NCBI GenBank assembly: GCA_043228905.1
Contig: JBHGNT010000006.1
Location: 18,600,001-18,664,000 of the forward strand
DNA length: 64,000 bases
Direction: 5' to 3'
DNA from: Azolla caroliniana
Lineage: Eukaryota > Plantae > Polypodiophyta
The translations under genes were made by a program, and so were the position numbers. Of the stretch, positions 1 to 63,746 are shown in pieces (position 1 is the stretch's first letter; each line of letters opens with the position of its first letter). The notes under the pieces were generated by a model. That model was not told the DNA's origin. It was given only the letters and a program-made list of their open reading frames with translations, and searched no databases.

Positions 1-3000
1 TTACCGGACGAGGAAGTCGAGCTGTACCTCGAGGAACACCCACGAATCATCCCACTATTTGAGGTGGATATCACGGCGGCAGTAGAACCGTACATTACAA
101 CGCCGGATGAACCGGACCAAGCGGCGATCCGGGAACTGCGACAAGCGCAGGAATCCCTAGAGAGGGAAATGACGATATCCCAGAGGGTAAAAGCATCCCA
201 ACTAGAGGAGGTGGACCTCGGCACAGCAGACAAGCCCCGACCGGTAAATGTTGCAAAGGAATTGCCGAAGGAAGAAAAGAAGGCAATGGTATCATTATTA
301 ACAGACTTCAAGGATGTGTTCGCGTGGTCGTACGAAGACATGTGAGGGCTGAACCCCCAGCTCTATCAGCACCAAATTCACCTAAGTACGGACGCGAAAC
401 CGATCGCTCAACGCAAGTACCGGATGAATCCGAATTATGCGGCGAAGGTGAAGGAGGAAATTGATAAGCCCCTCCGGGTCGGATTTATCCGGCCGGTCAA
501 GCAGGCAACCTGGCTAAGTCCGATAGTGGTGGTCCCGAAAAAGAACGGCAAAATCCGGGTATGCGTGGACTATCGCAAACTAAATGCCGCAACAGTGACC
601 GATACGTTTCCACTACCATTTACGGACGGGGTGTTAGATGCGGTAGCCGGCCACGAAGTTTACAGCTTCCTGGATGGATTTAGCGGCTACAACCAAATAC
701 GAATGCACCCGACCGACCAGGAGAAGACAGCGTTCATTACGGAATGGGGCGTGTTCGTCGCGGTCGTGATGATGTTCGGACTAAAGACGGCTCCAGCGAC
801 CTTTCAAAGGATAATAATGGAAATTTTCGGGGAATATATCCCCGGTTTTATGCAGGTCTTCCTTGACGATTTCGCGGTCTACAACCGGCACGGAGAGCAT
901 CTCGATCACCTCCGGCTGTGCTTGGAGAAGTGCCGCGAGTACCGATTGAGCCTGAACCCGGCCAAGTGCGTCTTTGGAGTGGCAAGCGGCAACTTACTAG
1001 GGCACGTGGTGAGTAAGGAAGGAATCGCGGTAGATCCGGATAAAGTCAAGGTGATTCTCGAGGCACCAGCACCAAATAACGCAAAGGCTTTAAGCCGGTT
1101 CCTGGGCCAAATAAGGTGGCATAGCCGGATGATACGACACCTCGCAGACTTCGCTACACCATTACATACCGCCGTACACAGGGTACCCTTCCTATGGGCG
1201 GAGATGGAGGAGGAAAGCCTACCAAGCGTTGAAGGTTATGTTGTCCCACGCTCCGGTGGTGCAACCGCCGGATTGGAGTAAAAGCTTTCATGTCTTCGTC
1301 GACGCGTCGGACATAGCAATCGGCAGCGTTCTGATGCAACTCACGGAGCCGAAATGGTACCGACCGGTGTACTACGCAAGCCGGAAACTCTCAAAAGCAG
1401 AACGGAATTACTCTACGACGGAACGCGAGGCATTGGGAATGGTGTATAGTGTCACAAAGTACAGGCACTATCTGCTCGGAAGGAAGTTTTCCTTCCATGT
1501 CGACCATTCGGCACTACTCTACCTGGTCTCGAAGGCATCCCTGACGGGAAAAATTGCACGATGGACACTGCTGTTACAGGAATTTGAATTCGACATTTTC
1601 CACCGACTTGGGGCGCAGCATGCGGTAGCGGACTACCTAAGCAGACTCGAATCCGGAGAAGCAGGGGACGGCGTCCAGGATGAGTTCCCCGACGCCGAGT
1701 TGTTCCGGATCACGACGAAACCGGCAACGGATGCAACGGTAGCCGATGAAGACACGTGGCTAACTGAGATGCATCAGTTCCTGAGCACCGGAGTTCCCCC
1801 GGAGAACATGGACCGCGATGAAAGGAAAAGGGTAGCAGTAAGAAGCAGACATTTCTGCTTGGTTGGAGACACCCTCTATCACAAGGGGGAAGATGGCATC
1901 TGGAGACGAGCAGTGCGGAGCGATGAGAAGGATTTAATCCTCAGGGAAGCCCACTGTGGAATTGCCGGCAGGCATTATGCCGGCGACGCAACCGCTCGGA
2001 AAATATGGTAGAGCGGATTGCGGTGGCCCACCACCCTAAAAGATGTCGTGAAGTATAGCAGAGAATGCGATTTGTGTCAACGATTGGGCCAACCCACGGA
2101 GCAGGCCTGGATGCCACACCACCCGGTCTTGCCTTTGGAACCGTTTCAAAAGTGGGGGTTGGACTTTATCGGTCCCTTCAAGCCACCGGCAATGCGAACC
2201 GGAAATCGGTATGTCATAGTTGCAACCGACTATTGCACCAAATGGGTAGAAGCAAAGGCCTTACGGGACAACACGGCCGCGTCCACGGCAAAGTTTCTGT
2301 ACGAGTGCATATGGTGCCGGTATGGATGCCCGATCGAGCTTATAAGTGACCAAGGAGGACATTTTCTCGGGCAGGTATTAGAAAGCCTGACGTCATTTTA
2401 CGCGGTGGTACATAAAAGGAGTACTCCCTACTACCCTCAAGCCAATGGACTAGCGGAATCAACAAACAAAACTCTGTAGAACATCCTACGAAAAATTGTC
2501 AACGAGAACCGGACCGACTGGGATACAAAATTGCAAAGCGCACTATGGGCGTACCGAACAACGTACAAAACCAGCATCCGGACAACCCCGTTCCGACTAG
2601 CATTCGGTTTAGAAGCGGTCATGCCGGTAGAGTTCCAGATCCCCAGCTTACGGATCCAGGTAAAGGAGCGCTTAAGTGAGAAGGAGTCCGAACGAATCCG
2701 GTTGGCGACGTTGTTGGAATTAGATGAAAACCGAATAGCCAGCTTACTACAACTCGAACTGGAGCAAAGGAGGAGAAAAGCTTTCGTGGACCAACACCGG
2801 CATGGCAACGAAAAGGAGTTCGAAGTCGGGAAACCGGTGCTACTATTCCAGACACAGATGGGGAACATGCCGGGAAAGTTGCGGTTTCGGTGGACCGGAC
2901 CGTTCTGGATCACCAAGGAGTACAATGGGTCGTATCAGCTCGGCACGTTGTCGGGAGATGTCATCGGTAAGTGGGCAAATGGGTTTCGGCTAAAGCCGTA

Positions 3001-3205: not shown

Positions 3206-3406
3206 CGTGGTCCAAACAAAGAAGAAAAAAAAAACGTGGGCAAAATCGACGTGAATCATAGTAGTGATGAGGAGATCACAAGAGGTGGGAGCGCCACCAT
3301 GCAACGAAGAGGCGCCATGCATTAAAGAAGGACGTGTGCGTACTTGCTATTTAAAGCATGGAACGTGGGCACTCACACGCGGCAAACAAGAAAGGACATA
3401 CTAATT

Positions 3407-6400
3407 ATGGCGGGAGAGGAACATGCGCGGGAAACGAAAAAGGGCGGCTCGAGGAAAATGCCAGTATATAAGACACAGGCCTGCGAAGGACTCACTTTTT
3501 ACGAATTTTCCTACACACAGGCGCAGAAGCACAGAAGAGTGATCCGACGCACAGTGCACACACAGCCCGATCCCGAACAACAGACAGCAGAGGAAGAATT
3601 CGAAACAATGGTACTATCGGAGGAGGCACACCAATGGATGAGGGAGAACGGGTTAAAAGGATTGTTGCGGATCGCCGACGCTCCACCACACGCAGAACCA
3701 GAGCAGGCGGCAGCATCGATCGATTTATCAGAAATCACGGAAGGAGCGGTGCAGGCGCTCACGGGGATAAAAGCAAGAGGGCTTCAAACAATCGAAAACC
3801 CTTCAAGTGAAATCCTGTTCGAATATTTCGGTGAGTATTCTATCAGCAGCAAGGCATACCGAACACAGGGCGGAGAGAACCTGCTGTTCGGAGAAGTGGC
3901 CCGCGCCATGATGGAATACGGATTCGTGAATCCTCGTCCCCCGACCATAGCCAGGTACCGGGCAGCGTTCTTAATAGCAGCATACGAAGGATTACAAGTA
4001 GACTGGCTCCATTTCATAACCGAAGGATTGAAGGAGGCCATCAAGAATCTTGTGGAAGGAAAAAAGCCATGGGCCGAGATAGCACAATGGCTAACAGTGT
4101 TAGTCCCACCGGTGCTCCCCATCACACAAAAGAAAAGAGGTCGGCAGGAGACAACGCCGAAAAAGGTCACAAAGCGCCGACAGATCCTGGAGAAACACAC
4201 CCCTGGATGGACCCAGCAAGAAGCAGAACAGCGGGGGGAAGGACCATCCCGACAGCAACAGGAACCGGCAACAAAGGCAAAACTGGCAGGAAAAGGCAAA
4301 GGGAAATCGGCCGAGGAGGAACCGGTACCGCGCAAACCAATCAATATAACGTTGCGACGGCCGGAACCGGAACCAGAGGTCTTTATACAAAATGTCCGTC
4401 TGGTAGCCGCACCGGAGGAGGAAGCTGAAACAGAAGACTCATCCGAACCACTGGTAAGACTCCCAGCAAGACAAGGTCTGGAGAGACGGGCGAAAGGACC
4501 GGCTCCACCAGTTGACAAAACTCAGCAGAGGGTGCAAGGACCACCTCCAGTAGCCGAGGCGGAAGCAATACCGGAACCCGTACCGAGGGAAGCAGCACCG
4601 ACACCGGTTGTGTCGGACTTCAGAGAACCGGTCATCCCAGAGAAGAAGAATGAACAAGCGCCGGAGCCAGAGAAAAGGCCGGAAAAACAGCCTGAGTTAA
4701 GGAGTAGAAGTGAGCAAGGCCACCCTGATACAGGAAGAACAAAGCCACAATGGCTGAGATGGCTTTCGGAGCAGTTATCGGGAGTAGCGGACCAGTTAGA
4801 GGAAGAAGAAACGTGTAGGCAACAGCTGACGCATACAACAACTCAAGAGTTGGTTGCGCTCCGAACACAGATCGAGGAAATGCAAGGGGAGCTGTTGCAG
4901 GCAAGGGAAGGAATTCAACAAGCACAAGTTGTCACCGAGCCGGTCGGGACAACAAGGAAGCAACCAGAACCGGAACCGGAACCTGTAGCCTTGCAAACCG
5001 GCCCTGAGACCGAAAAAATAATAGAAACCTTACGAGAGGAGTTAAAAGCTCAGGAGGCATTAAGGGAAAGAGAAAGGGAGCAGCGGAAAGCGGTGGAGGA
5101 CGACAGACGAAAAATGGAAGAAGGCCTCCGGAAAGGTCGAGCCACTAATGACCGACTGCAAGAAGAAAAAGAGAAGCTGCAAAAGGAGAAGGACCGACTG
5201 CGTCGACATGCCGAGCAGGAGATAGAACGACTGCAGGAAGAACTCCGACAATAGAAGGATCGGGACGATCGGTTAAGAGCTCAGGCAAACCGACGCCTGA
5301 AGCAGAAGACAGAGGACTTCGACCATCTCTACCGAGATCACAAGCAGGCCGAGTCGGACAACAAGAAACGGGCAGCAGACTACGACCGGCAAATAGAGAA
5401 GCTGAAAGAACAGCTCAAAGAGACCCGATTAGACCTGGCTAAGGCAATAGATGAGGTCAGTGCCAACAAGGAAGCATTGTCGGTGGAAATAGCCCAAGCA
5501 ACGGAGAGAAGGAAGGAATTAGAGGCGCTAAGGCGGGAAAAGCCGGATCTGACCAAGATCAGGACTGAAGAAAAGGAAAAATCGACCTTCACGATCAGCA
5601 AACTGCAAAGTACCTATGAAAAGCAGAAAGCGGATTACGAGGCCCAGGCTCAGATAATGGCCGACATTATAAAACGGGCAAGGAAGGAAAAGAAAGAAGC
5701 TTATGTGCATGCTAAGGCGGGGGTTGACCGGATCAAGCTCATCATGTCAGGTTGGAGTACCCGAGCTCAGGCAAGCATCAACGAAAGTACGGAAAAGCTA
5801 TGGAAGGAGTGGTCACAACAGGCAGCCGAGCTGTAGACACTCCAAGCGGATGCCGAGAATCGGAGGAAGACCGGTGACAAGTTCTACAAGATGGATGAAG
5901 AAAGTATCGTCGCCATTCGGGAAGAATTGTCGGAGGATTTCTACGCTTTAGCGGAAGAACATCTCAAAGAAATCCGAGGGTTGGTAGAGAGGTTGGATGA
6001 CGGGCAGCTCGCAACTCAGTTGGAGTTGGAGAAATACGAGCAGGACCGGTTACGACAGGAAGCCAAGGGAAGAACGACACCAATCACTATAAGTGAGGGA
6101 GAGCGACCGGCTAAAGTTGAACCAACCGACACCGAACAACCCCGACGAGGAATACCCGAAGAAGAACTTCCGTTCGAAGGAGAAGAAGAAGAGCAGGAGC
6201 AGACCGATGCCGGAGAAGAAGAAGAGCTGAGACCGAAAGACACCAAAGCAGAGGAAGAAGGCGTACCGAGCCGACCAGTCGAGACCGGAGAAAGCGACAC
6301 TAGTAACAGAATAGAGCCTGGAACGGAGGGAGAACAGGAAGAACCCGGATGAAGCGGTGAGGAAGCACCGGTACCACAAAACCAAGCAGAGCCGGAACAG

Positions 6401-6529
6401 CAAATTTTTACGGAACAGTCCACCCAACCGGAGGTCGGAGACCAGGCAGGCAAGGAACCGGAATTGGAGGAAGAAGCACCACTTGACACCATCGAGCAAA
6501 GTGTGCTCGATATTTTGGAGGAAGAATGA
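3407..6529 (+). pseudogene. Extra 3' ORF of A (~1040 aa; globular N-terminus, Pro/Glu-rich linker, long coiled coil, acidic tail), 3 premature stops
   Basis: ORFs 3344-5254, 5477-5836, 5891-6352 and the stretch to the TGA at 6527-6529 share one frame. Stops TAG, TAG, TGA fit C>T changes. Homologous ORFs in C and E end in IL(E/D)EE*. Confidence 0.8.
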
Positions 6530-6579
6530 GACCGGGAGTGGATTCGAAGTGCAAGGCACTTTCCCACGGGCGTGCCATG

Positions 6580-7394
6580 TGTTGGCCGGTCAGAAGAGCA
6601 AGGACAAGTGGGAAGGCGGAGTCGGATCGGATAATAGGAAGTAAATGATAGTAGAATTATTATTCAGAGGGACGGATCCGGTACAGTTGTACCGATCCGG
6701 ATCCGGACCGATTCGGATGTCGGTTGCCTAAGCGCACCGATTGTAACCTTGCCGGATGCCTATAAAAGGATCCGATGATTTGTAAAAGGCTTTGACGGAA
6801 GTAATACAAAAGTAATTATTGCGTGTTTATCTGTATTTTCGTATTGTTTACCGTCTGTGCTTAATTGTAATCATCTTACGCGTGTAACCTATGTTGTTCT
6901 CTGACCGGACAAGGCCTAACACAAGGTGTCACGGAGACACTTCACCAAAGGGTGATTACGGCATAGGATTATGACTCAACGATTACACCGACCTAAGTAG
7001 GTTACACGATTAGAGCGCTTTTGTTAATTACACGCGTAAGATATAACAGTAAGTACAGAACGGAAATCAACACAAAAGTATAAACACCATACGCTCTATT
7101 AATTATCCGCTGCGATTACAATGGGCTCCGGGCCTTTAAATAGGTTTCCGGTCCGTAGTACAAAACGGCGCCTATCGCACCTATTCGGGATCCGTCCGGA
7201 TCTGGAACGGCATACCGTTTCCAATCCGTCCGTCCATACTATGCTTATTTACAACCATACTTAATTAATTCCTTCACTCCGTATTTTGGACTCTTTGCCG
7301 GCCGGTAACAACCTAGCATCCAATCCTTACCACCCCTTTGGAGAAGTGTCGGATAGACACCTGTGTTGAGGCTAGTCCGGCCAGGCAGACAACA
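6580..7394 (+). repeat. 3' LTR of A (6580-6891 plus 7311-7394), split by a solo LTR
   Basis: Starts TGTTGGCCGG, ends GACAACA, TATAAAA near 6761; similar to the LTRs of C. Confidence 0.85.
6892..7310 (-). mobile_element. Solo LTR of an A/C-related gypsy family, inverted
   Basis: TG...CA termini, perfect 5-bp TSD ACCTA (6887-6891, 7311-7315), collinear similarity with the C LTR at 18941-19373. Confidence 0.92.
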
Positions 7395-7693
7395 CCTCTT
7401 CCATCTTTATATAAGGAGGAGAGAAATATGTATAAGGTTGTTGATTAATATACAAGGATTCATCAATCTAATATATTCGTGGGATTCACGAATTTTGCCA
7501 TCTAAATTACTCTTATAATCTAAATATTGTTTTAAATACACTAAACTCGTGGGATTCACGAGATTGCTATCTTACTTCTCTTTCTACTATTCATAACTAG
7601 CCTTAAGTTGTATTCCTCTTCCTCCTAGTCCAAAACCTCAGCGGTTCCCACCCGACTCACGCAACAATCTAGAGCCGAAAGGCACGACGCAGT

Positions 7694-7711
7694 TGGTGAA
7701 CCCGACGTGAA
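7694..7711 (+). promoter_or_regulatory. Primer binding site, tRNA-Trp (element X)
   Basis: Complementary to the plant tRNA-Trp 3' end as I recall it (TTCACGTCGGGTTCACCA). Same PBS in H, I and J. Confidence 0.85.
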
Positions 7712-7802
7712 AACCCGGGTGGCAAGGAGATGGAAAATCAACCGGAGGCTAGCAACATGATGATGATGTTCAAGCAAGCATCCATGGGCTACGACAACAA
7801 AA

Positions 7803-8170
7803 TCCGACATGGGAGGCGTTTGAAGAAGAGCTAAAGAGGACGTTCGCCATCAAGGATTCTTCCAAGGCGACGCGAAGGGGATTCGAAGATTGGGTGGAGA
7901 CGCCGGACAAGGGATTGAAGGTCGTTGATGTGTTTTCGGCATTCGAAAGCCGGTTCGGGAGGTTGTCCGCGAGAGATCAAGCTATCCTCGTACCGGACAA
8001 GGTGATCATGTTCTTGCGAGCCGTGGACGTCTGGGACCGGAAAGATCTCGGAGTGCTCTTGGAGGACACGACCACGAAGAGTGGCCTCACCGAAACATGG
8101 GAAAGCGTGCGAGATATTGTCGCGCGATACACGAAGAGGGTGGAATAGCTTCCCAACGAGGAAGAGAGGG
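7803..8170 (+). pseudogene. gag fragment of X
   Basis: RRGFEDWV...VPDKVIMFL...DRKDLGVLLED matches I gag RRAFMDWV...VPDKVILFL...DRKDLGMLLED. Confidence 0.82.
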
Positions 8171-9219
8171 TGTCTTGCCTTTCGGCTCCGGATCGTTGCG
8201 TGAGTCGGGTGGGAACCGCCGAGGTTTTGGACTAGGAGGAAGAGGAATACAACTTAAGGCTAGTTATGAATAGTAGAAAGAGAAGTAAGATAGCAATCTC
8301 GTGAATCCCACGAGTTTAGTGTATTTAAAACAATATTTAGATTATAAGAGTAATTTAGATGGCAAAATTCGTGAATCCCACGAATATATTAGATTGATCA
8401 ATTCTTGTATATTAATCAACAACCTTATACATATTTCTCTCCTCCTTATATAAAGATGGAAGAGGCTAAGCATGGCTTCATGCTTTTTCACCAAAAGTGT
8501 CCATGCACACTAAATGTGCATGTGATGTGATGCTTTTTCATTTCCTAAGTATAGGGCTCATGCACGCTAGATGTGCATGAGTCACTTTTAATGTCACGTG
8601 TAAATAAAATATTCACACCCTAAAGAATACATGATTTTTACCTTTTAATAAAGGTATGTGTAAATAAAGGTCTTATACGTGGAGGTGCAGGGTTTGAATC
8701 TTGCCCTATGGACGTGATAAATATTTTGATATATTATTTATTTATTTATATGTATCTAAAATCGGATATATTATTTTATGGTTTTCACGTAGTGTGTGGA
8801 ATACACTATGATAACGCTAGTATAATGATAAGGCTTAAGATTATTAACATGGAGGTGCAAGGTTCGAATCTTGCCCTATGCATGTTATATATATTTTTAT
8901 ACTTTCTTCTATTTACAAATACGTCTCTTCATCCGGTGAGAGACTCTCACAGGCCTTCTTCATCCGGCTCTTTCCGGTTCTGCTTCATCCGGTGCTTGAT
9001 TGTTTTCTTTGTCCGGTTCTTACCGGGACCTCCTTACCGATCTCTTCGTCCGTTTCTCACCGACTCTCACTAGCCTTCTTCATCCGGCTCTTGCCAGGTC
9101 TCCTTGCCGGTTTCGGTCCTTACCGGTTCCTTCTTCCGGTTCTCACTGGGTACTCCATGTCCTATCTGGAGAGACCAAAAATGTAATTTTTCACGTAGTG
9201 TACGAATTACACTACGACA
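8171..9219 (-). repeat. Full-length LTR (~1049 bp) of family X, inverted
   Basis: On the minus strand it starts TGTCGTAG (like the TGTCGTG starts of H, I, J) and ends GGCAAGACA; copia gag sequence resumes at 9220. Confidence 0.78.
8818..8876 (+). promoter_or_regulatory. tRNA-like Pol III A/B-box module in X LTR (antisense to the element)
   Basis: A-box-like TAGTATAATGA at 8818, B-box GGTTCGAATCT at 8861 within a GCAAG/CTTGC stem. Degenerate second B-box at 8691. Confidence 0.55.
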
Positions 9220-18940: not shown

Positions 18941-19373
18941 TGTTAACTCTTAGGGCCGGACAATGGCCTAACACAGGGTGTCTACGGAAGACACTTCACC
19001 AAAGGGGTGTTACGACAAGAGGATTAGGCTCTACGATTAATCCGATTTAATTAGGTTACTTAGCAAGATCATCCTTAATAATCACACGCGTAAGATATAA
19101 CAATGAATGCAGAACGGCAATTAACACAGAGATAAAAACACTAAGCTTCATTAATTATCCATCGCTCATTACATTGTATCCGGGCCTTTAAATAGGTTTC
19201 TGGTTTGTAGTACAAAACGGTGCCATCCGCACCTGTTCGGGATCGGTCCGGATCCGAAACGGCATACCGATTCCGGTCCATCCGTCCACACTAATAGCTT
19301 ACTTACAACCATTCCTTAATAATTAAATAACTCCTTCATTTCACACTCTGGACTCCTATGCCGGCCGGTAACA
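18941..19373 (-). repeat. 3' LTR of C
   Basis: TG...CA termini; close copy at 28350-28784. Confidence 0.93.
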
Positions 19374-19428
19374 CATGGCACGCCCGTGGGACAGTACCTT
19401 GTACGTCGAATCCACCATCCGACCCTTG

Positions 19429-22408
19429 CTATTCTTCATCCAAAATATCGAGAATGCTTTGTTCGAGAGTCTCCAACGGTTCATCTGGAATTGGTGGTTG
19501 TTGTTGTTGTTGTGGTTACTGCTGCTCCGTTGATGGCTGCTGCGACTGGTCCTTTGGTGGCTGCTACGACTGCATCTCCATTTGTTGCTCTGACACCGGC
19601 GTTTCTGTCGTTGCTCCCTCCGTCGTAGTGGTCTCCGGTTGACTGGTTCCGGCCTGGCCCTCGGCCGGCGACGGTTCCTCATCACTAAGGTTAACCCTTG
19701 CCGCTTCCCGTGCTTTTTCATCCCGAACCCGGGACCGCGCGTAGCTCTCAAACTGGATTTAAGCGTCCAGCCTATCATCATCTAGGTGAGCTACGAGTTG
19801 CCAGACCTGCACCAGTTGTTCATCCGCCAGGACTTGGAAGTCTTCAGCCAGTTCGTCCCGTATGGTGGTGAAGTCCTCAGAAGTCAACGTGTAACAATCA
19901 TCTCCTTCCTTCCGCCGGTTTTCCACGTCTGCCCGTAGCAATTGGAGTTCCGCCGTATTTTGTGCCCACTTTGTCCACCATCTTACGGAGCTTTCGTCAA
20001 TCAAGCGTTTTGTCTGATTCAGCCATGCACTGAGGATGCACTGAATCCGACCCGTTCCCATCTGCGATTTGATCTCCGCAGCTTGTCGTTCCTCCTTCAA
20101 TTGCTTGATGATTTTGACGTTGTCTTCTGCCTGCTCCTTGTAATGCGTTAACTGCCTTTGATATGTGCTTTGTAATTTTTGCAATACCGTTGTCGCTCTC
20201 TCCCTTTCTTCCTACTGCTGACTCTGGAGCTCCATCCGGACCTTCTCCACCTCATCCAACCGTCTTGTATTTTCCACTCGTTCGTCGGCGAGCGCCATCG
20301 CGGCCTGATCAACTTCCTATCGGAGCTCGGCCATCCGTTCCTTATGCTCCGTTTCCAGCCATTTGTAGTCCCGATGCAGGTGCTAAAAATCATCTGTCTT
20401 TTTCTTGAGCTGTACGTTGATCTGTCGACAGGCCCGGTCCTCGTGGTCCTTCTGCTGGCGGAGCTCCTCCTTTAGCCGTTCAATTTCCGTTTCCGCCGTC
20501 TTCCGTAGCTTGTCCTTTTCCTACAGCACTTTGTCTTTTTCCTCGCTTAGCCGGTCGTACGCTTGATGGCCTTTCCGAAGGCTCTCCTCTGCCCGGCGGA
20601 GGTTCTCAGCAGTCTTCTTTAATTCTACTTCGGCCGTTGTCTTCAATTCCCATTCACGGCTCCTTAGCGCTTCTTGTGCGGCAAGTTCATGTCTCAATTC
20701 CGCAAGCTCCTGGGCTTGCGCCACATCTCTCTCTGGAAAGGTTTCTGTTGCCGGGGTCTTATTAGTATGTACAGGTTGGTCTGGTTCTTTATTCTGTATA
20801 CTTACCGGAGTCGCCGGTGATTGGATCTGTGTTGCCGTTAAGGCCATTTTGGCCATTTCTGCCGTGACCTGATTCAAGTCTTTTTCAAGGCACCGGATTC
20901 TGGACCGGGCCGTCTCTAGTTGTTCGGTTGTGACGAGCAACCGTTCGCTTTGCGCTCATTCTTCCACCTCAATATACCCCACTGCTCCGGCAATCTGTTC
21001 ACCTATCCACCGGAGCCACAGGCTACCGGTGCGTTGTTGTTGCGCTTGCACGGAGGTTTGACGGATGGGCTCGCTTGTGGGTGGGTGGTCCCGCCTGATT
21101 GCGCGGAGTTGCAATTCCGTTTCTGCTAGTGGACCACCTTGTTGTCCTGGTTCCCCTTGCGCTTCTTCTTGGTTGGCCGAGGGAGGCTTCATTGACCTTT
21201 CCGACTCTGGCAGAACGGGACTTGCCGGTGCTGCCGGTGGTGCAGGGGCTTCTGATTCCGGTGCCATGCGCACCGGTTCCAGTTCCTCCCTTCGTGTGGG
21301 AGTCTCAGTATGGGGAGCCGGTGTTCCCTCTGGCTGGGGGTCCGAACGTTTCCCGGCTTCCTCAACGGTCCTTGCCGATGACCGTCGCTAGAGGTGCTCC
21401 GTAGGCTCCTCCTCTATTTCCTCCTCTGAGTCCCGGCATTGAGTTTCGCCGCCAAGGGGTCCGCTTCTCTATTCACCGGTCGGCGGAGTGTAATCTTTAC
21501 GGACTGTACCGGTGGTTCCTCCTGCGCATCCGTTGGCCGCTTCCAGCTGGCGCTCTCCTTTCCCGCCTGTTCTACGTCCGCTGCCTTCCCCTTAGTGGCC
21601 TTAAAGGCCAACAACTGTTGTCTTTTGGAAGGAGTCTTTGGGGTGTTGTCCGCCACTCTTCCCCGCTTCTTGGGCTCGACGGGCTCGACGGGTGGCACAA
21701 GCAAGGTCAGCCACTGCGTTACTGCATGCCATATCCTCCGTCCGTCTCGGCCTTCTTTGCCGTTTTTTCCTTTGACGATCTCGATCGCCGCACACAAACC
21801 GTCTGCGATCAATACCGGCCTATCCACCTCAATCCCTTCATAGGTGGCGATGATCATCCCTGCCCGGTTCTACGGCATGACAGGGGGTCTAGGGTACACA
21901 TGGCCGTATTCGTGGAGCACACGGGCAATCTCGCAGAACAGCATATCTCCGCCGCCATGTGTCCGGTAGCCCTTGCTGGCTAGGGAGTACTCACCAAAAT
22001 ACTTGATGAGTTGCTCCGAGGTCGGATTGTCGATCGTGAATATGCCTCCCTCCGGAAGGCCTGTTAATGCACGGATCACCTCCGTCGTTATGACCTCTGT
22101 GTTGATTTCTTTGATCACCTTGTCAGCTTCTTTGTGTGGCGGTACCTCCATAATCGTCAAGAAGCCCTCCAGCCCGTGTTACTTTAGCCATTTCTTGGCG
22201 GCTTCCAATCGCGTTTGCGGGTCCATGTTTGTGTCGGGGTCAGATTGTGGTGGCGAGGTTGGATAGTGATGAGAGAGAGAGTTCAGAAAGCAGGGGTTCT
22301 CTGTGCGTAGGTTCTCGTCTGATGGTCTTCCAACGCCTTGGTGCTTCTGTGCTCCTGGGTTCACGAAAGTAGAAGGTCTCCATGCGTTGTGGTTTTTCTC
22401 TGTGCATT
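19429..22408 (-). pseudogene. Extra 3' ORF of C (homolog of A 3407-6529); start approximate
   Basis: VIRALTGL, YFGEYSLASKGYRTHGG, WLTLLVPPV, WLRWIGEQ, IRDELAEDF and DILDEE* align with the A extra ORF. Confidence 0.82.
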
Positions 22409-22605
22409 CTGGCGCCTTTTTCGAGCGTGTGCACGTCGTGTCTTAAAATAGCATTATGTCCTGTGGCGGCGCTTAAATGACCAATACGTACCTTTTCGCT
22501 CCTCGCTCTCTCATCCGTCCATACCTCGCTTTTGCATGATTACTTCGCTTTTCTTTTTCTTTTCTTTTTTTTTTTTCTTTTCTTTTTTTTTAATGTAGTG
22601 TGAGG

Positions 22606-25600
22606 TTACTTGTCCGTTGGTCCTATCGGACCCTTACCAGCCTCATTACGGTTTGCCGTTGCCTCATTCTCCCCTGTTACCGGCTTGCCGTCTCCTCCGT
22701 CTTGGTGGTTGCCGTTTCCCTCACAGGTTGTCGTTTCCGCACCGGTTCCCGATCCGGTGTCGGTCCTTTGCTCAAATGGGTTCTTGGGCATCGGTCCTCT
22801 ATATGGCTTCAATCTGAATCCGTTGACCCATTTGGCTAGCACTTCGCCAGCAAGTGTCCCTAACTAGTAGGACCCATTATACTCACGTGTCAGCCAATAC
22901 GGGCCGGTCCATCTAACCCGTAGTTTACCCGGCATCTTGCCCATCCGGGTCTGAAATACTAACACCGGCTTGCCGATTTCGAACATTTTTTCATTTCCTT
23001 TCCTGTGTTGGTCGACAAATGCTTTCCGTCGCCGTTGTTCCAATTCTAAGTGCAGGATGCTTGCTAGTCGTTGTTCCTCGAGTTCACACAGCGCTGTTAA
23101 CCATATTGCCTCCGACTCCTTCTCGTTCAGCCATTCCCGTAGCTGAATCCGTAAGCTTGGTACTTGGAATTCCACCGACATGACCGCCTCTAGTCCGAAC
23201 GCTAACCGGAATGGTGTTGTTCGGATGCTCATTTTGTATACTGTCCGGTATGCCCAAAGTGCGCTATGTAGCTTGGTATCCCAATCCGTTCGGTTTTCGT
23301 TGATGATCTTCCGGAGGATATTCTGGAGCGTTTTGTTCGTCGACTCAGCTAACCCGTTTGCTTGCGGATAGTACGGTGTGCTCCATTTATGCACAACGGC
23401 AAAGAATGTCGTCAAGCTTTCAACTACTTGGCTGAGAAAGTGCCCCCCTTGGTCGCTTATTAATTCGATTGGGCATCCATAACGGCACCAAATGTATTCG
23501 TATAGAAATTTTGCCGTTCACGCAGCGGTGTTGTCTCTTAAGGCTTTGGCCTCCACCCATTTCGTGCAGTAATCCGTCGCGACGATGACGTACCAATTAC
23601 CTGTTCTCATTGTTGGTGGTTTGAACGGTCCAACAAAGTCTAGTCCCCACTTCTGGAATGGTTCGAGTGGTAGTACAGGCTGGTGTGGTATCCGAGCTTG
23701 CTCCGTTGGCTGGCCCATTCGCTGGCATAGGTCACATTCTTTTGCGTACCGTACAGCATCTCTTAATGTAGTTGGCCACCATAGGCCACTTTGCCATATT
23801 TTCCTGGCCGTCGCATCTCCGGCATAGTGACCTTCGGCAACACCGCAGTGGGCTTCCCTCAGTATGAGATCCTTTTCATCGTTGCGCACAGCCCGTCTCC
23901 ATATGCCGTCCGCGCCCTTGTGGTAAAGTGTGTCTCGCAGTAAGCAGAAATGTCGGCTTTGCACCGCCAGGCATTTCCTTTCGTCCCGGTTCATCTCCTC
24001 CGGAGGCAGTCCTGTGCTCAGAAACTGGTGCATATTTGTGAGCCACTTGTCTTCCTGTGCCACCGTCTCATCTGTTGTTGTTTCCGTAGTGACTCGAAAC
24101 AGCTCCGCATCCGGAAACTCGTCCGCTACTCCGTCGCCCGTCTCTCCAGACTCTAATCGGCTTAAATAATCCGCTACGACATGCTGTATACTGGGTCGGT
24201 GGAATATTTCGAACTCGAATTCCTGTAACAGTAAGGCCCACCGGGCCAACTTACCGGTGAGTGACGCCTTGGACACCAGGTAGAGGAGTGCCGAATGATC
24301 TACATGGAAGGAAAACTTCCTTCCCAATAAATAATGCCGAAACTTTGTCACACTGTAGATCATCCCTAGAGCTTCCCGTTCCGTGGTAGAGTAGAGTAGT
24401 TCCGCTTGGCATAGCTTTCGGCTGGCATAGTACACTGGCCGGTACCACTTTGGCTCCGTAAGCTACATCAGTACGCTTCCGATTGCGATGTCGGAGGCGT
24501 CCACGAACACATGAAATTCTTTACTCCAATCCGGAGGCTGCACTACCGGTGCTTGCGACAATAGTACCTTGAGGGCCCTATACGCCCTATCTGCGGTGTC
24601 GGTCCACTGGAATGGTGTTCGATGTACCGCGACATGCAACGGTGTAGCCAGGTCGGCCAAGTATCGGAGCATCCGGCTGTGCCACCAGATCTGGCCTAAG
24701 AACCAGCTCAATGTCGTTGTCGTTGCCGGCGTCGGTGCTTCTAATATGGCTTTCACTTTGTCCGGGTCGACTGCAATGCCTTCCTTGCTCACAATATGTC
24801 CTAGTAGGGTTCCACTGGACACGCCAAAGGTCGGGATATATTCACCAAAGATTTCCATGATGATTCGTTGGAATGTTGCCAGTGCCGTTTTGAGTCCGAA
24901 CATCATCACCACGGCCACAAACACCCCCCATTCGGTGACGAAAGTCATTTTCTCTTGGTCTTCGGGGTGCATACGGATCTGATTATACCCGCTGAATCCG
25001 TCTAGAAAGCTATAGACCTCATGGCCGGCGACGGCATCCAACACTCCATTTGTGAACGAAAGTGGAAACGCATCTGTTACCGTCGCCGCATTGAGTTTCC
25101 GGTAGTCCACACAAACTCGAATTTTTCCGTTCTTCTTCGGTACGACTACGATCGGGCTCAGCCATGTCGCTTTCTTTACCGGACGGATAAAGCCAACTCT
25201 TAGTAGTTTGTCGATTTCCTCCTTGATTCTGGCGGCATAATTGGGATTCATCCGGTACCGTCTTTGTGCCACTGGTTTTGCGTCCTTGCTCAAGTGAATC
25301 TGATGTTGGTATAACTGAGGGTCGAGCCCTCGCATGTCTTCATATGACCAGGCAAACACGTCGCGAAATTCCGTGAGAAGTGTGATCATCGTCGTTTTGT
25401 CTTCGGACTTCATCTCCTTGGCGATGTGCGCCGGTTTTGCTTCGTCCGTGGTCCCTAGGTTCACCTCTTCAAGTTGCGACGCTTTTACGTGCTGTGAAAC
25501 GGCCATTTCCCGTTCCAACGCTTCCTGCACTTGCCATAACTCTCGGATTGCGTCCTTATCCAGTTCTGCTTCAGTCTCTTCCGGCTATGGTAAGTATGGT

Positions 25601-28296
25601 GCTACTTCGTCGAGAATGTCAATTTCGAAGAGGGGTACGATCTTCGGGTTTTCCTGCAAGTACTGAGCTTCTTCTTCATCAGCTAATCTTTCTAGCATGT
25701 TGACGCACTCTGCATACAACGGTGTACATTCCTTGCCAGTGCTCGTCCTTGGCTGTGTTGGTACACGTACCTTGGCTTTTCTTCGCCGGAAGGTAATTAT
25801 ATTTTTCCTCCAATTCTGTTTGATATGTGCCATTTTCAACCACGGCCGCCCCAGCAATAGCGGGTACGCGCCTTGTGCCTGTAATAGTAGCACTACTGTC
25901 GAGATGTGAAATGTATGACCGCCAACGGTGACTTCTAATTTCCGTATTAATCCTGTCGACCGCACTGAGCTTGTATCGGCCATCCGTAACCAGAACGGAC
26001 ACGGCTCCCACTCGTGGATTCCCAGGGCATCACACATCCGAAGGCTTATTACATTCACACCGGAGCCTCCGTCTATTACTGTGTCGGGGAGTTCTTTCCC
26101 TTTTACAATGGCAGTAATTACCGGATTGTTGGTGTCCACCACCGTTGGTCCCTCTTCCGGATTCGAGAAGAGTACCGGTGCCGGTGATGATTCTCCTTCC
26201 CTCATGACTGTCTTCAGTCCTTCCGTGAATCTCGGCACAAGCTGTAGGAGTCTTCCTAGTGGTAACGTAATCTGGCATTCTTGCAACGCCTACCATGTCT
26301 CGTTCTCGGAGTGATTGCCGCCGGCAAGCCCTACGGTGTTCTTCTTTTGCCGCTCTAAGTCTGTTACGTTTTGCTCGTTTGCTTTCTTCACCCATTCCGT
26401 CGCTTGCTTCCGGATGGTCTCCTGCGTCTCCCATTCCTTGGCAATGCCCTTCAACCTTGTGGTCACCTGCTGCAGATCTGCCACTTTAGGGACTACCATA
26501 TTTACTGCCGGTCGTTTGTCATAGCTCTTCACCGGGCATTGATTACTATAATGGCCTTCCTGTCGGCAGTAGTAGCAATACGCTTTCCGGGTATTGTTGG
26601 ATTCAGCATTGTTTGTTGTACCCGGGGCAGGTCCTGTGGTAAGCACGGGGTTTTGGGCCGGTTGGCTGCTTGAAGCTCCTTGTTCTGGATCCTGTGGGTG
26701 GCCGCTATTTTTGAAATGTCGTTTTTTGTTATAGTTCTTATTGCGGTACTCTTGACGAGGTTGGTCGTTATATCTGCCATATTCCTCCCGTTGCTGACGA
26801 TACCCGGGGGAGTGCTCCCAGTCGTAATGTTCGTATCATCTATTGTAATCCCGGTACCGATCATTTCTATCGTGCCGGTCATAGTTATCCCGCCGATCAT
26901 CGTACCGAACATCATTCTCACGTCGATCGCCATACCGGACATCCTGTGCCGGTCGGTATCGGTCCATTCGCCGCCATCGTTCCTCTTCTTCATCCCGGCT
27001 GCTGCGTGCCTCTATTTGTTGGACGGGCGGTGCTTGCCGGTTCAATAGATTATACTCGCACCTATCCATCGTATGGCCCTTGGATTGACAGATTACACAT
27101 TGCGTCCTCATAGTGCATTCTAGTGCCGAGTGTCCGGAATTCAAGCAGGTTGTGCACTGTATTGCTTGCCGAAACCGGAGGTCTTCATCGGACGGTAACG
27201 CCCGTTGGAGTGCTCCCAGTGTGAGCCAGGAGCTTGTCTTTTCCATCTCTCTCACCCAGTCAATGACCTGGTCGATGGTAGTTGCGCGGAAGTCAATTAC
27301 CGTGCAAACCGTGCGTAGGGGTTCCCGAAGCGCATTTAGGAATATAGTCCGTAATTCCTCCTCCAGGGGTGCGCGGGCAAGCTAACTATGCATCCGTTGA
27401 AACCGGATGACAAACTGGGGAATGCTCTCCCCTTCCTCCTGTCGGATGGTATAAAACAAGCCCACCATTACTGTCTGGTCCACCTCCTTCTGGAAAAAAT
27501 GCAAGAATTTAGCTTTTAAATCTGCGAAGGTGGTGATGGTAGACGGGTCCTGCGTCCGGCGCCACCTTGTTGCCGGTCCCTCCAATGTGACGCCCAATTC
27601 CGCTATCTTAGAGCGTTCCTCTTCCTCCGGGGTCAATCGCTGGGACACATGGTTTGCTTCCCATGTCTGTTCAAAGGCATGAACATGAGCTTCCGCTTCC
27701 AGATCATCTCTATACTTGGAGTATTGGAACGGCATGTCGTCGTCCGGTATCGGTGCGCGGGTTGGTGGTGTTAGTGGTCGTTCCTGGTTTGTCTCCGGCG
27801 TCGGTGGTCTTTCCTCTTCTTTTGGTGATGAAGGCCTCTCCTCCTCGACTTCCGGTGTCGGAGGTCACTCTTCCTCTGCTTCTGGTTCCGGAGGTTCCAG
27901 CCTTAGCACTTCTGGTTCCGGTGTTGGTAAGGTTTCCGATCCTTCGTCCTCCGGTCCGCCTGGGATGTCGTTGCTGCTACGGTAGTTCGTGTGCACGTTG
28001 TATCGCCCTTTGGAATCCGATTCATACGCTGAAAATGCTTCTGCTTTGCCTTCTCCGCTTGCCAACGCCTGGAGAAGGGATTCGGTTTCCCAGAGGCTGC
28101 TTAGGCTGCTGCCGTCATCCGGGTGCGATGTTTGCTGTAACCAGAGGGACTCCTTCGCTACTCTCCAGATTACGTTGGAAAACGAGCGATCCGCTCTAAT
28201 TTCCTGCGCCGCTTGCTGGAAATCCTCACGTCTCCTTTGCCTTTCGGCAAGGTGTCGAGTTCGATCTGTAACCAGGTCGTGCGTAGATCTAGTCAT
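22606..28296 (-). pseudogene. C gag-pol (zinc knuckles, protease, RT with deletion, RNase H, integrase)
   Basis: CTTCLNSGHSALEC, CYYCRQEGHYSNQC, VIDGGSGVNV, and RT/RH/INT closely matching A; several stops. Confidence 0.92.
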
Positions 28297-28330
28297 CCAT
28301 TCATGCCGTCGTTCGCTGCAAAAACAGGAA

Positions 28331-28342
28331 TCGTGGTCGCCA
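28331..28342 (-). promoter_or_regulatory. Primer binding site, probably tRNA-Arg (element C)
   Basis: TGGCGACCACGA 7 nt after the 5' LTR; complements a GTGGTCGCCA tRNA-Arg-type 3' end. Confidence 0.7.
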
Positions 28343-28349
28343 AAAACTA

Positions 28350-28784
28350 TGTTAACTCTTAGGGCCAGACAATGGCCTAACATAGGGTGTCTATGGAAGA
28401 CACTTCACCAAAGGGGTGTTACGACAAGAGGATTAGGCTCAATGATTAATCCGATTTAATTAGGTTACTTAGCAAGATCGTCCTTAATAATCACACGTGT
28501 AAGATATAACAATGAATGTAGAACGGCAATTAACACACAGAGATAAAAACACTAAGCTTCATTAATTATCCGTTGCTCATTACATTGTATCCGGGCCTTT
28601 AAATAGGTTTCCAGTTTGTAGTACAAAACGGTGCCATCCGCACCTGTTCGGGATCGGTCCGGATCCGGAATGGCATACCGATTCCGGTCTGTCCATCCAC
28701 ACTAATAGCTTACTAACAACCATTCCTTAATAATTAAATAACTCCTTCATTTCACACTCTGGACTCCTATGCCGGCCGGTAACA
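28350..28784 (-). repeat. 5' LTR of C
   Basis: Copy of 18941-19373, adjacent to the PBS. Confidence 0.93.
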
Positions 28785-30946: not shown

Positions 30947-31445
30947 TGTTAACCGTTTCTAGGGAATTACCTTCAATGAGCCCACAGGCTATCGGTGTCA
31001 AGGGATCGTGTTACGTGGAAGCCTCTTTTACACGGGGAAAAGGAAGGAGAACGGGGAGCGTACATGGGCTACAACCCATTAGGCATAAACGTAGCTCGAT
31101 TTACGAGCACGGGGAGAATACCCAGATAGAAGATTAGAAAAAACGAAACTTATATTAAATGATAAAGCTCACAGCGATTACAGTACTCGGCTCTCAGCCG
31201 GAAATAGTTCGTACAGAGCTTGCTACTAGGATAATACTCTCGCTAAGACTGATCTAGATAATCCCCCATGTCGAGGTATGCATAACTCGGGTTATATAGT
31301 TTTTCCTCTTGAGACAGAGCCAAGCCATCAGCTTATTGTGAGGGCTAAAACATGGCTATTTCTAGTCTTACCTATTTCCTCACCTACTCTTCTACCTAAC
31401 GGCGAGTTTACATAATATATTTATATTTCTGGCCTATGGACAACA
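30947..31445 (-). repeat. 3' LTR of E
   Basis: TGTTAAC...CAACA; interrupts B2 gag; adjacent internal motif matches A and C. Confidence 0.8.
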
Positions 31446-31856
31446 CCTGGCACGCCTGTGGGATAGGACATTGTCTGTCGGACCCACGGTGCACCATGTG
31501 GAGGGGTAACCATGGATTTGGCAAAAACAAAACAAATTACAAAAATTGCCCGTTTATACGAGGGCTTATAGGTTTGTTTTATTCCTCTTCCAATATGCCG
31601 AGGATATCCTCAGGGGCGTGGGGTTGGTCTGGCTGCTCGGAAGGTGGGATTGGTGATCGAGGTTTTGTTGCCGAGTTGGGGATGGTTGTGTCATCGTGTG
31701 CGCCCTCCTTCGTTGGGACCGATTTAGGCAGGGTCATGGTTGTAGTCTATGGCTCGAGTGGGATGTGGGGGCCTGTTGGGGCAGGTTCCTCCAGTCTGGC
31801 TTCCGTGGTGGGTGGCTTGGGTCCTTGCTCGTTGGTCATGGGAGCTCTGTTAATCC

Positions 31857-50659: not shown

Positions 50660-52743
50660 GAGGGCCGAGTGGTCGACGTGGAATGTGAAATTCCAGCCCA
50701 AAAGATAATGTCGGAGTTTGTTGATGTTGTAGACCATACCGAGGGCCTCGCGTTCAGTGGTTGAGTAGTTCTTTTCCGCGGCCGAGAGTCATCAACTAGA
50801 GTAATACACAGGCCGGTACCAATTTGGTTGTGTGTGTTGCATGAGTGCGTTGTCGATGGCTATATCTAATGCGTCTACGAAGACGTGAAAAAGTTCCCAC
50901 CAGACCGGTGGCTGTACCACAAGGGCATGGGAGAGCATTAACTTAAAGGCTTGGTATGCTTTGTCTTCTGTTGAAGACCACTGAAATGAGAGTCGATGCA
51001 CCGCTGCGTGCAAAGGAGTCGCGAAATCGGCCAGGTGGCATATCATCCAGCTATGCCATCTAATTTGGCCCAAGAATCTACTGAGAGCCTTCGCGGTAGA
51101 GGGCGCAGGGGCATTCAGAATGGCCTACACTTTATCTGGGTCCATGGCGATGCCTTCCTGGCTGACTATATGCCTGAGCAGGTTGCCGCTTGTCACCAAG
51201 AACGCGCATTTTGCCGGATTTAAGCTCAAGCGAGCGTGTCAACATCGTTCGAGACAGAGACGTAGCTAGGTCATATCCTCAAGCCGCTAGCCATACACGG
51301 CAAAGTCGTCGAGGAACACTTGCATGAACGCCGGAATATACTCGTTGAAAATCTCTGAGATGATGCGTTGGAACGTGGCTGATGTGGTTTTTAATCCAAA
51401 CATCATTACGTCGGCCACAAAGACACCCCAATCCACGACAAACGTCATTTTCTCCCGATCGTCCGGGTGCATTCGGATTTGATTATAGCCACTGAACCCA
51501 TCGAGGAAATTGTAGCATTCATGACCAGCCACCGTATCGAGGACACTATCCGTGAATAGAAGAGGAAACCCATCTGTGACGGTCGCGGCATTGAGTTTGC
51601 GGTAATCAACGCAAACGCGGATTTTCCCATTTTTCTTGGGGACGACGACAATTGGCTCTTTTTACAAGGCGTATAAAGCCTACTTGCAGGATTTTGGGGT
51701 TCATCCGGTACCGTCGTTGTTGGATCGGCCGAGTGTCCGGCAGGAGGTGTACTTGATGTTGGTAAAATTAGGGATCCAATCCCTTCATATCAGTGTAAGA
51801 CCATGCGAACACATCTTGATACTCCATGAGCAGGCGTATCAGGGCTGACCGTTCGTCGGCTGGTATGTTATTAGCGATTTGTAGTGTACATAGGTTCTCG
51901 TCGGAGCCGAGGTTCAGTGACTCAAGCATTGATGCTTTGACTCGCTGGGAAATGGCGAGTTCTCATTCGAACGCGTTCTGAGCTTGTCGTAGTTCCGCGA
52001 TAGTTGTGGAATCGGCTTCGTCCTGGGGAAGGGAATCTGCCATGCCATCCTCTTCCAGTGGTGTGCTGAAACCCGAAATGGCGTTTATTTCGAAGAGGGG
52101 TATGATAGTGGGGTGATCTTCCAGGAAGTCATCCACGTCTTCATCGGCTAAGCCGTCGAGCATGTGTACCCCTTCCACATATAAGGGCGTAGTGTTGTGG
52201 GGCGTGTTTAAGCGTTCTTCTGTTAGTACCCGTACCTTGGACTTCCCCGGTGGAAGGAGATCATATTCCGCTTCCAATGTTGTTTAATATTTGTTGTGCG
52301 CAGCTAGGGTCGGCCAAGCAGCATTGGGTAAGTGCCTGGAGCTTCAAGGAGTAACACGACTGCCGAGATAGTGAACATGTGGCCGCCTAACGTGAAATCA
52401 AGGTGGCGGATTAACCCGATGGGGCAAACCGATCGCGTATCGGTCATCCGTAGCCAAAAGGGGCAAGGCTCCCATTGGTTTATGCCGAGGGTGTGACGTG
52501 TGGCCTCACTGATGACATTCACACCAGAGCCACCGTTGATTATGCACCCATGAAGGTCACGTCCTTTAATCGTGATTTTCACGGCTGGATTCTAGGAATC
52601 CATGAGGGTTGGGCCCGTCCCTGGCTCCATTAGGTTAACAAGGGGTGCGACCGATATGTCATTAGCCGTGAGCTTAGCCAAGGTATCCCGAAAGCGCGGC
52701 ATGAGTGGTAACATCTTATGTAATGGCAGCGAGATCCTAGCGC
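50660..52743 (-). pseudogene. E protease-RT-RNase H, heavily decayed
   Basis: IINGGSGVNVI, FLDGFSGYNQI, QVFLDDFAV, HVFVDA, HVDHSAL. Confidence 0.87.
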
Positions 52744-60627: not shown

Positions 60628-61270
60628 TGTCGTGACGATTTTCGGCTACGGTGTGAAACCGAGTGAGACGAATAAACCAATGATGTGCAACATTGCACAT
60701 ACACTTAGCAAATAAGCCTCCTAAGGCTTAGTGGCACTTGAGTTCATACAGAGGGGTGCAAGCAAGGATTGAACCTTGCACCTCTAAGATACAAGATAAT
60801 TGCCTTACCACTAGGACAACTATCATATAGTGTAGATTTTATGTATTTCCTTTTCATATACAAATTATAGACGAAACAACCATAGAAAACCATGTGCACA
60901 AAACCATGGTTTTAAACCCATGGTTTGTGCATGACATAAGCAAAACCGTGTGCACAAAACCATGGTGTTAGCCCATGGTTATGTGCATGTCACGAGCATG
61001 GAAAGACCTATAAAAGCCTCTAGTTGGGCTTGTGTAAGGGGGGCTCAATATGTGATATCACCAACACCATTATCATCAATATAATATTTGTCTTTATCTT
61101 CATATTTTTCTACTTCTCAAGTGTACAATTTTTCTTCTTCTCAAGTAAACCATTTTCATTTAATCTTACATTGATCGTCATCTAGCGTCGATAATTCCGT
61201 GATCATCCTCCCTAGTCCAAGACCCCGGTGGTCGCTCGAGTAGCACACGCACGCGCGAATCTTCGCGACA
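60628..61270 (+). repeat. 5' LTR of J
   Basis: TGTCGTG...CGCGACA. Confidence 0.93.
60760..60818 (-). promoter_or_regulatory. tRNA-like Pol III A/B-box module in J LTR (copy at about 63386-63444)
   Basis: Minus strand TGTCCTAGTGGTAAGG...GAGGTGCAAGGTTCAATCCTTGC. Confidence 0.6.
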
Positions 61271-61275
61271 TCATT

Positions 61276-61293
61276 TGGTGAACCCGACGTGAA
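61276..61293 (+). promoter_or_regulatory. Primer binding site, tRNA-Trp (element J)
   Basis: TGGTGAACCCGACGTGAA. Confidence 0.88.
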
Positions 61294-61314
61294 GAGCAGC
61301 AGGGGAGGACGAAG

Positions 61315-63177: not shown

Positions 63178-63253
63178 TCACCGTTGCCAAAGATCTCACC
63201 TCTTCACCTTTCTCGGCACATACCGGAGGATGTGCGGGTTTGGTGGGGGTGGA

Positions 63254-63746
63254 TGTCGTGACGATTTTCGGCTACGGTGTGAAACCGAGTGAGACGAATA
63301 AACCAATGATGTGCAACATTGCACATACACTTAGCAAATAAGCCTCCTAAGGCTTAGTGGCACTTGAGTTCATACAGAGGGGTGCAAGCAAGGATTGAAC
63401 CTTGCACCTCTAAGATACAAGATAATTGCCTTACCACTAGGACAACTATCATATAGTGTAGATTTTATGTATTTCCTTTTCATATACAAATTATAGACGA
63501 AACAACCATAGAAAACCATGTGCACAAAACCATGGTTTTAAACCCATGGTTTGTGCATGACATAAGCAAAACCGTGTGCACAAAACCATGGTGTTAGCCC
63601 ATGGTTATGTGCATGTCACGAGCATGGAAAGACCTATAAAAGCCTCTAGTTGGGCTTGTGTAAGGGGGGCTCAATATGTGATATCACCAACACCATTACC
63701 CCGGTGGTCGCTCGAGTAGCACACGCACGCGCGAATCTTCGCGACA
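63254..63746 (+). repeat. 3' LTR of J (150-bp internal deletion)
   Basis: Matches the 5' LTR except for loss of about 61073-61222. Confidence 0.92.

Follow-up and report, generated by a model that had tools for sequence, protein, structure and literature searches.

In the literature, retroviruses and LTR retrotransposons are described as generally priming their plus strand from a polypurine tract, or PPT (PMC5371799, PMC6317226, PMC10886601). In Ty3 and other canonical elements, this PPT is encoded by the element itself (PMC5371799). The elements of Azolla caroliniana described here resembled them in the tRNA used as minus-strand primer at the 5' primer-binding site (PBS), in a gag-pol with reverse transcriptase (RT), RNase H and integrase, in the 5-bp target duplication and in a putative plus-strand primer ending just upstream of U3 (PMC5371799), but they had no PPT, and another host tRNA, annealed to DNA, probably served as their plus-strand primer. 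Ty3 and Ty1 bind their tRNA in two segments, the acceptor stem and the T arm (PMC5371799), and Drosophila gypsy has two tRNA-Lys2 sites, the second of which is near the 3' end (PMC1635307). The Azolla site was similar to both in these respects. However, the Ty3, Ty1 and gypsy sites are complementary to the tRNA on the genomic RNA and serve minus-strand initiation in elements that have a PPT (PMC5371799, PMC1635307), whereas the Azolla site was in tRNA sense and hence, from its sequence, could bind the tRNA only as minus-strand DNA. In defective HIV-1 proviruses, RT reads the attached tRNA primer, and 7-54 nt of tRNA are left in the integrated DNA (PMC12657518), which is a precedent for reading such pieces as primer footprints; the HIV-1 tRNA is the minus-strand primer at the PBS, whereas tRNA copies of the Azolla elements were also found at the start of U3. 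Helenus TRIMs are likewise LTR elements with tRNA-derived sequence, but their tRNA-like part is inside the LTR as a promoter, and both PBS and PPT are present (PMC10886601).

The window, the whole 64,000-nucleotide stretch that was analyzed, contained three gypsy elements (A, C, and E), each with a conserved site directly followed by an LTR starting with TGTT, and the three hairpin sequences reported in the initial annotation were all found in place. In element A (plus strand), the site consisted of a distal half (6538..6547), a 13-nt mini-hairpin insert with a 4-bp covarying stem and a 3-nt loop (6548..6560), a proximal half (6561..6577) and a 2-nt spacer (6578..6579) between CCA and the TG of the 3' LTR. 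An inverted solo LTR (6892-7310, with ACCTA as target duplication) interrupted this LTR (6580..7394), and the RT and RNase H frames of pol (346..2008) were broken by stops and frameshifts. A sense extra ORF of 1021 aa followed pol (L093:6751-9816; window 3326-6530, plus strand), stopped a few bases short of the site and matched no Pfam family above the cut-off. An inverted repeat pair of 294 bp (98%), probably a DNA transposon or MITE, was located directly after the 3' LTR of A (7395-8465). Element C was complete (18941-28784, minus strand) with a 5-bp target duplication (TGTCC/CGTCC), a 3' LTR (18941..19373), a 5' LTR of 95% identity to it (28350..28784), a broken pol region with RT, RNase H, and integrase zinc finger (22867..25584), an ordinary 5' PBS complementary to tRNA-Arg(UCG) 7 nt past the LTR (28331..28342), and the site with its mini-hairpin and spacer at 19374..19415. 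Element E (minus strand) had the corresponding site at 31446..31487 and a 3' LTR at 30947..31445, the end of which is approximate; an RT of the same clade (51167..51643, minus strand) probably belongs to E across nested insertions. As first described, A, C, and E had no purine tract before the 3' LTR (8-9 purines of 18), whereas the other six LTR pairs of the window had 11-14 purines of 18 and a G run. An LTR pair with 100% identity over 445 bp and a PPT was located at 60628-63698, with no recognizable PBS after the first repeat as aligned.

An analysis of the site revealed that it reproduced, in sense orientation, the last 28 nt of the host tRNA-Arg(UCU), including the T arm, the acceptor strand, and CCA. 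The distal half was a copy of tRNA positions 49-58 (5' strand of the T stem and the T loop), the mini-hairpin was inserted at 58/59, and the proximal half was a copy of positions 59-76 with one C missing (65/66). The tRNA identity of the hairpin together with the following 12-mer, which ends in CCA, had been missed in the initial annotation, and the lower stem and bulge of the proposed RNA hairpin were the T stem and T loop of the copied tRNA. Comparison with host tRNA-Arg(TCT) genes, found with ARAGORN at 12 of the 20 loci fetched, showed that these genes end in the same letters as the site and have no genomic CCA; ARAGORN found no tRNA in the window. The G/A variation among the elements matched G- and A-type isodecoders of tRNA-Arg, and E carried the A-type letter. 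In an alignment of 148 rows, the distal block matched tRNA positions 49-58 by 68-98% per column, whereas no base exceeded 48% in the nine columns upstream; the distal block was free of search-pattern constraint, while the 3' part of the alignment was partly fixed by the search patterns. Substitutions in the distal block showed no clear bias toward wobble-compatible changes, and at least one copy (L014) had lost the block. On the opposite strand, the site had the form of a PBS directed from the 3' LTR into the element, complementary to the mature tRNA 3' end over 11 nt without mismatch, then, after a 1-nt bulge, over 6 more and finally over up to 10 more. Like a functional PBS, it would pair with a mature tRNA 3' end with CCA near the LTR terminus, 2 nt from TG. 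The ordinary 5' PBS was complementary to tRNA-Arg(UCG), or to tRNA-Arg(UCU) in some subfamilies; tRNA-Arg(UCG) was located with a looser pattern after a first, stricter one gave none. Degenerate tRNA-Arg(TCT) copies with shared flanks were clustered elsewhere (L039-L044, L050; C4:19.5 Mb, C11:0.69 Mb), possibly as a tandem repeat or SINE-like family.

The site was not restricted to the window. Exact junctions of CCCACRGGCGTGCCAKG+TGTT numbered 2118 in the 523-Mb genome, with the site fixed 2 nt before U3 in all these copies, and the control gave 0, so the motif was not due to chance. A looser junction pattern gave 2979 matches, some of which were ordinary PBSs of another family. When copies with long open frames were picked from an RT search (18082 candidates, of which 150 were scored) and the motif was ignored in the choice, the Arg(UCG) PBS was present in 20 of 20 and the inverted site in 19 of 20; for the remaining copy, no 3' LTR was found within 14 kb. 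In a second young subfamily, all 4 copies examined had both, giving the PBS in 24/24 and the inverted site in 23/24 young copies. A normal PPT was found in none of the 23 with a visible 3' LTR, in keeping with the initial annotation, and the LTR starts were 98.6-100% identical in protein-picked copies where both were seen. A G-run variant of the motif (L126, L168, L184, L187, L194), considered as a PPT combined with the site, proved to be an ordinary PBS on the opposite strand. In a metagenome scan, at least 123 stretches with the site were found, nearly all of those listed coming from one assembly series, and the site was also covered by a pile-up of contigs from sequencing runs of four other organisms. 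A scan of viral contigs gave 9 matches, none of them in an LTR or hairpin context. An element of about 3 kb, apparently non-coding, had the same PBS and 3' site with a 4-nt spacer (L319:725-3440; C2:12.74 Mb), and non-autonomous members thus apparently use the system too, judging from this copy.

A young copy had the Pfam order gag, zf-CCHC, RVT_1, RT_RNaseH, Integrase_H2C2, and rve with no Pfam match to a chromodomain, and in the elements a TG...CA LTR pair, a target duplication, and a tRNA PBS after the 5' LTR were all present, as in Ty3/gypsy non-chromoviruses apart from the PPT. The motif-bearing RTs formed one clade (support 100/99) with 77-96% identity to that of A, except for one fragment of 63%, and the clade was placed among non-chromovirus RTs of liverworts, ferns, and Tat-like Vitis rows. 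A search aimed at PPT-bearing sister clades returned only the motif-bearing clade. The long extra ORF after pol and the length of about 10 kb were features shared within the group of plant non-chromovirus lineages (Athila, Tat/Ogre/Retand, Phygy, and Selgy), and the tRNA-Arg PBS was shared with Ogre/TatIII/Retand (PMC6317226). Tat (TatI-III, Ogre, and Retand) was excluded because the 1957-aa polyprotein had no Pfam match to RVT_3/aRH, the domain used as criterion in PMC6317226. Athila was excluded by primer type, tRNA-Arg instead of tRNA-Asp/Asn; the rows of the tree included no labelled Athila reference. The Azolla elements also differed from Athila in the sense orientation of the extra ORF (PMC6317226). 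Phygy and Selgy, which have a 4-bp duplication, a tRNA-Trp or tRNA-Ala PBS, and no extra ORF (PMC6317226), were excluded by the 5-bp duplication, the Arg PBS, and the 1021-aa extra ORF. The sections of that survey consulted here treat 5' PBSs only and report no PPT-less group (PMC6317226).

The mini-hairpin, rather than the whole bulged structure, carried the covariation. As isolated 30-mers, A (-9.7 kcal/mol, z -2.2) and C (-7.5 kcal/mol, z -0.67) folded as drawn in the initial annotation, but E took a different register. In a 101-nt context, A, C, and E were no more stable than shuffled sequences (z -0.03 to -1.0), and C folded otherwise. The two compensatory pairs between A and C and the two A.C mismatches of E were present as described. 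The alignment used for covariation consisted of 148 distinct sites, 58 from the genome and 90 from metagenome contigs; of 160 distinct segments, a filter removed 11 before alignment, namely 5 chance matches, 4 ordinary PBSs, and two genuine sites that were degenerate (L014, L207), and one more chance match (L209) was taken out by hand. The predicted covariation of the 30-nt structure was borne out, with 128 both-side changes against 41 in shuffles and a score of 0.238 against 0.100 in shuffles and at most 0.084 when the structure was slid, where cells count sequences and not events and the shuffles ignore relatedness. It was concentrated in the inner pairs (46, 49, and 17 both-side changes), with the stem types GTGC/GCAC, GTAC/GTAC, GGAC/GTCC, GGGC/GCCC, and GCGC/GCGC, and the same stem swap recurred across separate LTR subfamilies. 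The lower stem had only 2 both-side changes over 4 pairs, its 3' side being fixed by the search pattern in most rows, and its outer pair was unpaired in 46 of 148; among the 25 rows not selected by pattern at the lower stem, the standard outer pair was seen in just 9. RNAalifold did not recover the hairpin from the 148 rows; its only prediction was a helix of 3 bp at another place (-0.86 kcal/mol). G.U and A.C cells in the stem were balanced (19 and 22), so that RNA and DNA strands were not told apart. The site thus stood as a conserved, structured cis-element that replaces the PPT and points to non-canonical plus-strand priming, as first proposed, but the 30-nt bulged RNA hairpin did not hold up as the functional unit.

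Judging from the sequences, plus-strand synthesis is most likely primed by a host tRNA-Arg(UCU) that anneals to the minus-strand DNA, which would mean dual tRNA priming. In the proposed course, tRNA-Arg(UCG), or tRNA-Arg(UCU) in some subfamilies, would prime the minus strand at the ordinary 5' PBS, to which it is complementary, a use supported by retained copies at the U5 end. RNase H would then clear the genomic RNA, as is standard. On the DNA so exposed, tRNA-Arg(UCU) is predicted to form two paired segments, positions 76-59, which include a single bulged tRNA base, and positions 58-49; opposite A58, the mini-hairpin of the DNA would loop out and create a three-way junction. RT would extend the CCA through a spacer of 2-4 nt into U3, as the footprints described below suggest. 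The primer would normally be removed and the spacer lost at integration; if it were not removed, the finishing minus strand would copy the tRNA and often stall at A58 after 18 nt. Cofolding of A, C, and E, with RNA parameters as a proxy, predicted the three-way junction at about -50 kcal/mol compared with -4.5 to -5.8 kcal/mol for the DNA alone; in the predicted structure, a single bulged tRNA base was 11 pairs away from the primer end, and the mini-hairpin was looped out at 58/59. A tRNA on DNA is in principle a substrate of RNase H, and a likely candidate role of the bulge and hairpin is to position RT or to shield the RNA:DNA hybrid from RNase H. Since the two active sites of Ty3 RT are about 13 bp apart (PMC5371799), the bulge might, speculatively, lie close to the RNase H active site and preserve the primer. 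The wider reading, that the lineage abandoned the PPT, uses host tRNAs to prime both strands through a tRNA:DNA three-way junction that spares the tRNA from RNase H, and keeps fossils of the second primer in the genome, seemed likely, though slightly less so than the priming itself.

Footprints of the tRNA at U3 provided the evidence to separate a host primer from a built-in mimic, which the site sequence alone cannot do. The missing C distinguishes element-type from tRNA-type sequence, and 46 exact tRNA-type 18-mers with CCA were found in the genome, all of which were inspected. Thirty-seven were read as U5-side (ordinary PBS, retained minus-strand primer, or inverted chimera) by spacer, LTR identity, and TATA direction, with the calls verified for part of the 37; one was joined to an internal gag position and one was in a complex chimera. 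The other seven represented four independent events before the U3 of the LTR that the PBS follows, on the 5'-LTR side. These were 57 nt of tRNA in three copies of a tandem duplication (C2:12.01 Mb), about 50 nt with A58 read as T (C2:12.74 Mb), 18 nt between LTR copies (C16:17.53 Mb), and 18 nt of the A-type isodecoder in an element with a G-type site of its own (C20:0.88 Mb). The footprints, 18-57 nt in length, carried the extra C and the non-genomic CCA, and all four differed from the 3' site of their own element, while each kept the spacer of its subfamily (TG at C2:12.01, TATG at C2:12.74, AG at C16, and TG at C20). Because CCA was present, mature tRNA was the source. Methylated A58 of tRNA blocks RT, and the 18-nt lengths and the A58 misread fit such a block. 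In their sequence, the footprints appeared to be the trace expected of an unremoved tRNA plus-strand primer. As a positive control, U5 ends likewise carried retained copies of the minus-strand primer tRNA-Arg(UCG) (L102, L103, L105). All three of these copies began at position 38, and this common start suggests an RT block at the modified base 37. Minus-strand tRNA-Arg(UCU) was also kept at U5 ends over 39-76 nt (L031, L045-L049, L328, L363, L369), once in full length with CCA (L045), and with misreads at position 58 among the copies, which are a fossil record of tRNA modification.

The most serious alternative is a primer built into the element, in which its tRNA-like RNA would survive RNase H, be cut after CCA in the manner of a tRNA-DNA junction, and prime the plus strand, and the footprints would come from later switching onto a look-alike tRNA. 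The plus-sense RNA can indeed fold (-11 to -13 kcal/mol), the mini-hairpin covaries, and chimeras of site and tRNA type exist (7 of 46 matches; C3:8.09 Mb). Junctions of this kind would also result if RT copied an element-derived primer that had not been removed and then switched, through short homology, to a tRNA; template switches do happen, since the C3:8.09 Mb chimera mixes tRNA letters and element hairpin letters. However, in the C20 footprint the letter 10 nt from the CCA end is that of the other isodecoder, so that the switch would need to work with 9 nt of homology or less. Short element-type pieces before the 5' LTR, the expected remains of such a primer, were not found in searches within one LTR length range; A-type 5' LTRs had 0 short retained pieces upstream, and the three matches before the 5' LTR in one subfamily were one tRNA-type piece and two tandem elements. 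A built-in primer would also leave unexplained that the site tracks tRNA positions 49-58 and both isodecoders while the lower stem is uncompensated, and we regard it as unlikely.

A second alternative, considerably less probable, is that another nearby primer starts the plus strand and RT, having reached the end of the minus strand, jumps to the 3' ends of free tRNAs, with the site as a decoy, a strand-transfer aid, or a packaging signal. End-to-end jumps of RT need little homology, and a tRNA-type 18-mer was found at an internal gag position (L370), both of which would fit. But three of the four footprint elements had an Arg(UCG) PBS, and in all three the tRNA captured at U3 was Arg(UCU), matching the 3' site and not the minus-strand primer; Arg(UCG) followed by a 2-nt spacer and TGTT occurred twice in the genome, and neither match was read as U3-side. 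The captured pieces kept the subfamily spacer (TG, AG, or TATG), a feature that puts the beginning of the plus strand right at CCA, and four other CCA-TG-U3 junctions were three mutated sites and one ordinary flank. The 5' LTRs start at TG, which rules out as primer the purine-rich run about 45 nt upstream, where the extra ORF ends. Hepadnavirus epsilon has covarying lower and upper stems, a templating bulge, and terminal-protein priming by RT. An epsilon-like RNA signal for packaging or protein priming, the analogy drawn in the initial annotation, is the least credible, for although A and C can be drawn with a lower stem, a bulge, and an upper stem that has a single bulged U, this likeness is superficial: the lower stem and bulge are a tRNA T arm without compensation, Rfam gave only one chance match around site A (E 5.5), Pfam found no extra priming domain in the polyprotein, and the site immediately flanks the LTR, at the place required for the 3' end of a primer.

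Several rearranged copies combined both types of sequence. The order of element hairpin, tRNA-type 18-mer, PBS-type spacer, and inverted LTR was found in 7 of the 46 matches (L341, L342, L347, L358, L364, L367; C2:18769770, C3:8087665, C4:14909592, C10:11769321, C13:7721002, C16:16199577/661). In these chimeras, the PBS copy of the plus strong-stop DNA was likely mis-transferred onto the complementary 3' site, which would be a cost of carrying both sites. One chimera was integrated (L373:2109-9715; C3:8.087-8.095 Mb), with LTRs of 99% identity and a 5-bp duplication; its interior was an inverted C-type element, the reversed 3' site of which stood as the PBS, and a tRNA-derived piece was located before the 3' LTR. 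It may serve as a model for the origin of the site. At L370 (C21:4842470), U5 and the spacer were joined to 18 nt of tRNA-Arg(UCU) running into internal gag, a possible case of ectopic plus-strand priming.

A tRNA-primed plus strand, or an inverted PBS replacing the PPT, was not described in the literature searched, which mostly excluded subscription papers, Repbase reports, and the per-element table of PMC6317226. Within that literature, the priming route that these sequences suggest would be without precedent, although the kind of element itself is known. Programs that rely on PBS and PPT to determine the orientation of LTR elements would probably orient this lineage wrongly or discard it. 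If the proposed route is true, the site provides a short, testable substrate for primer selection and removal, and the RT/RNase H of these elements would be able to use a tRNA:DNA hybrid as a precise primer. A high-copy and recently active lineage of Azolla elements would then break the PPT rule with a second host tRNA.
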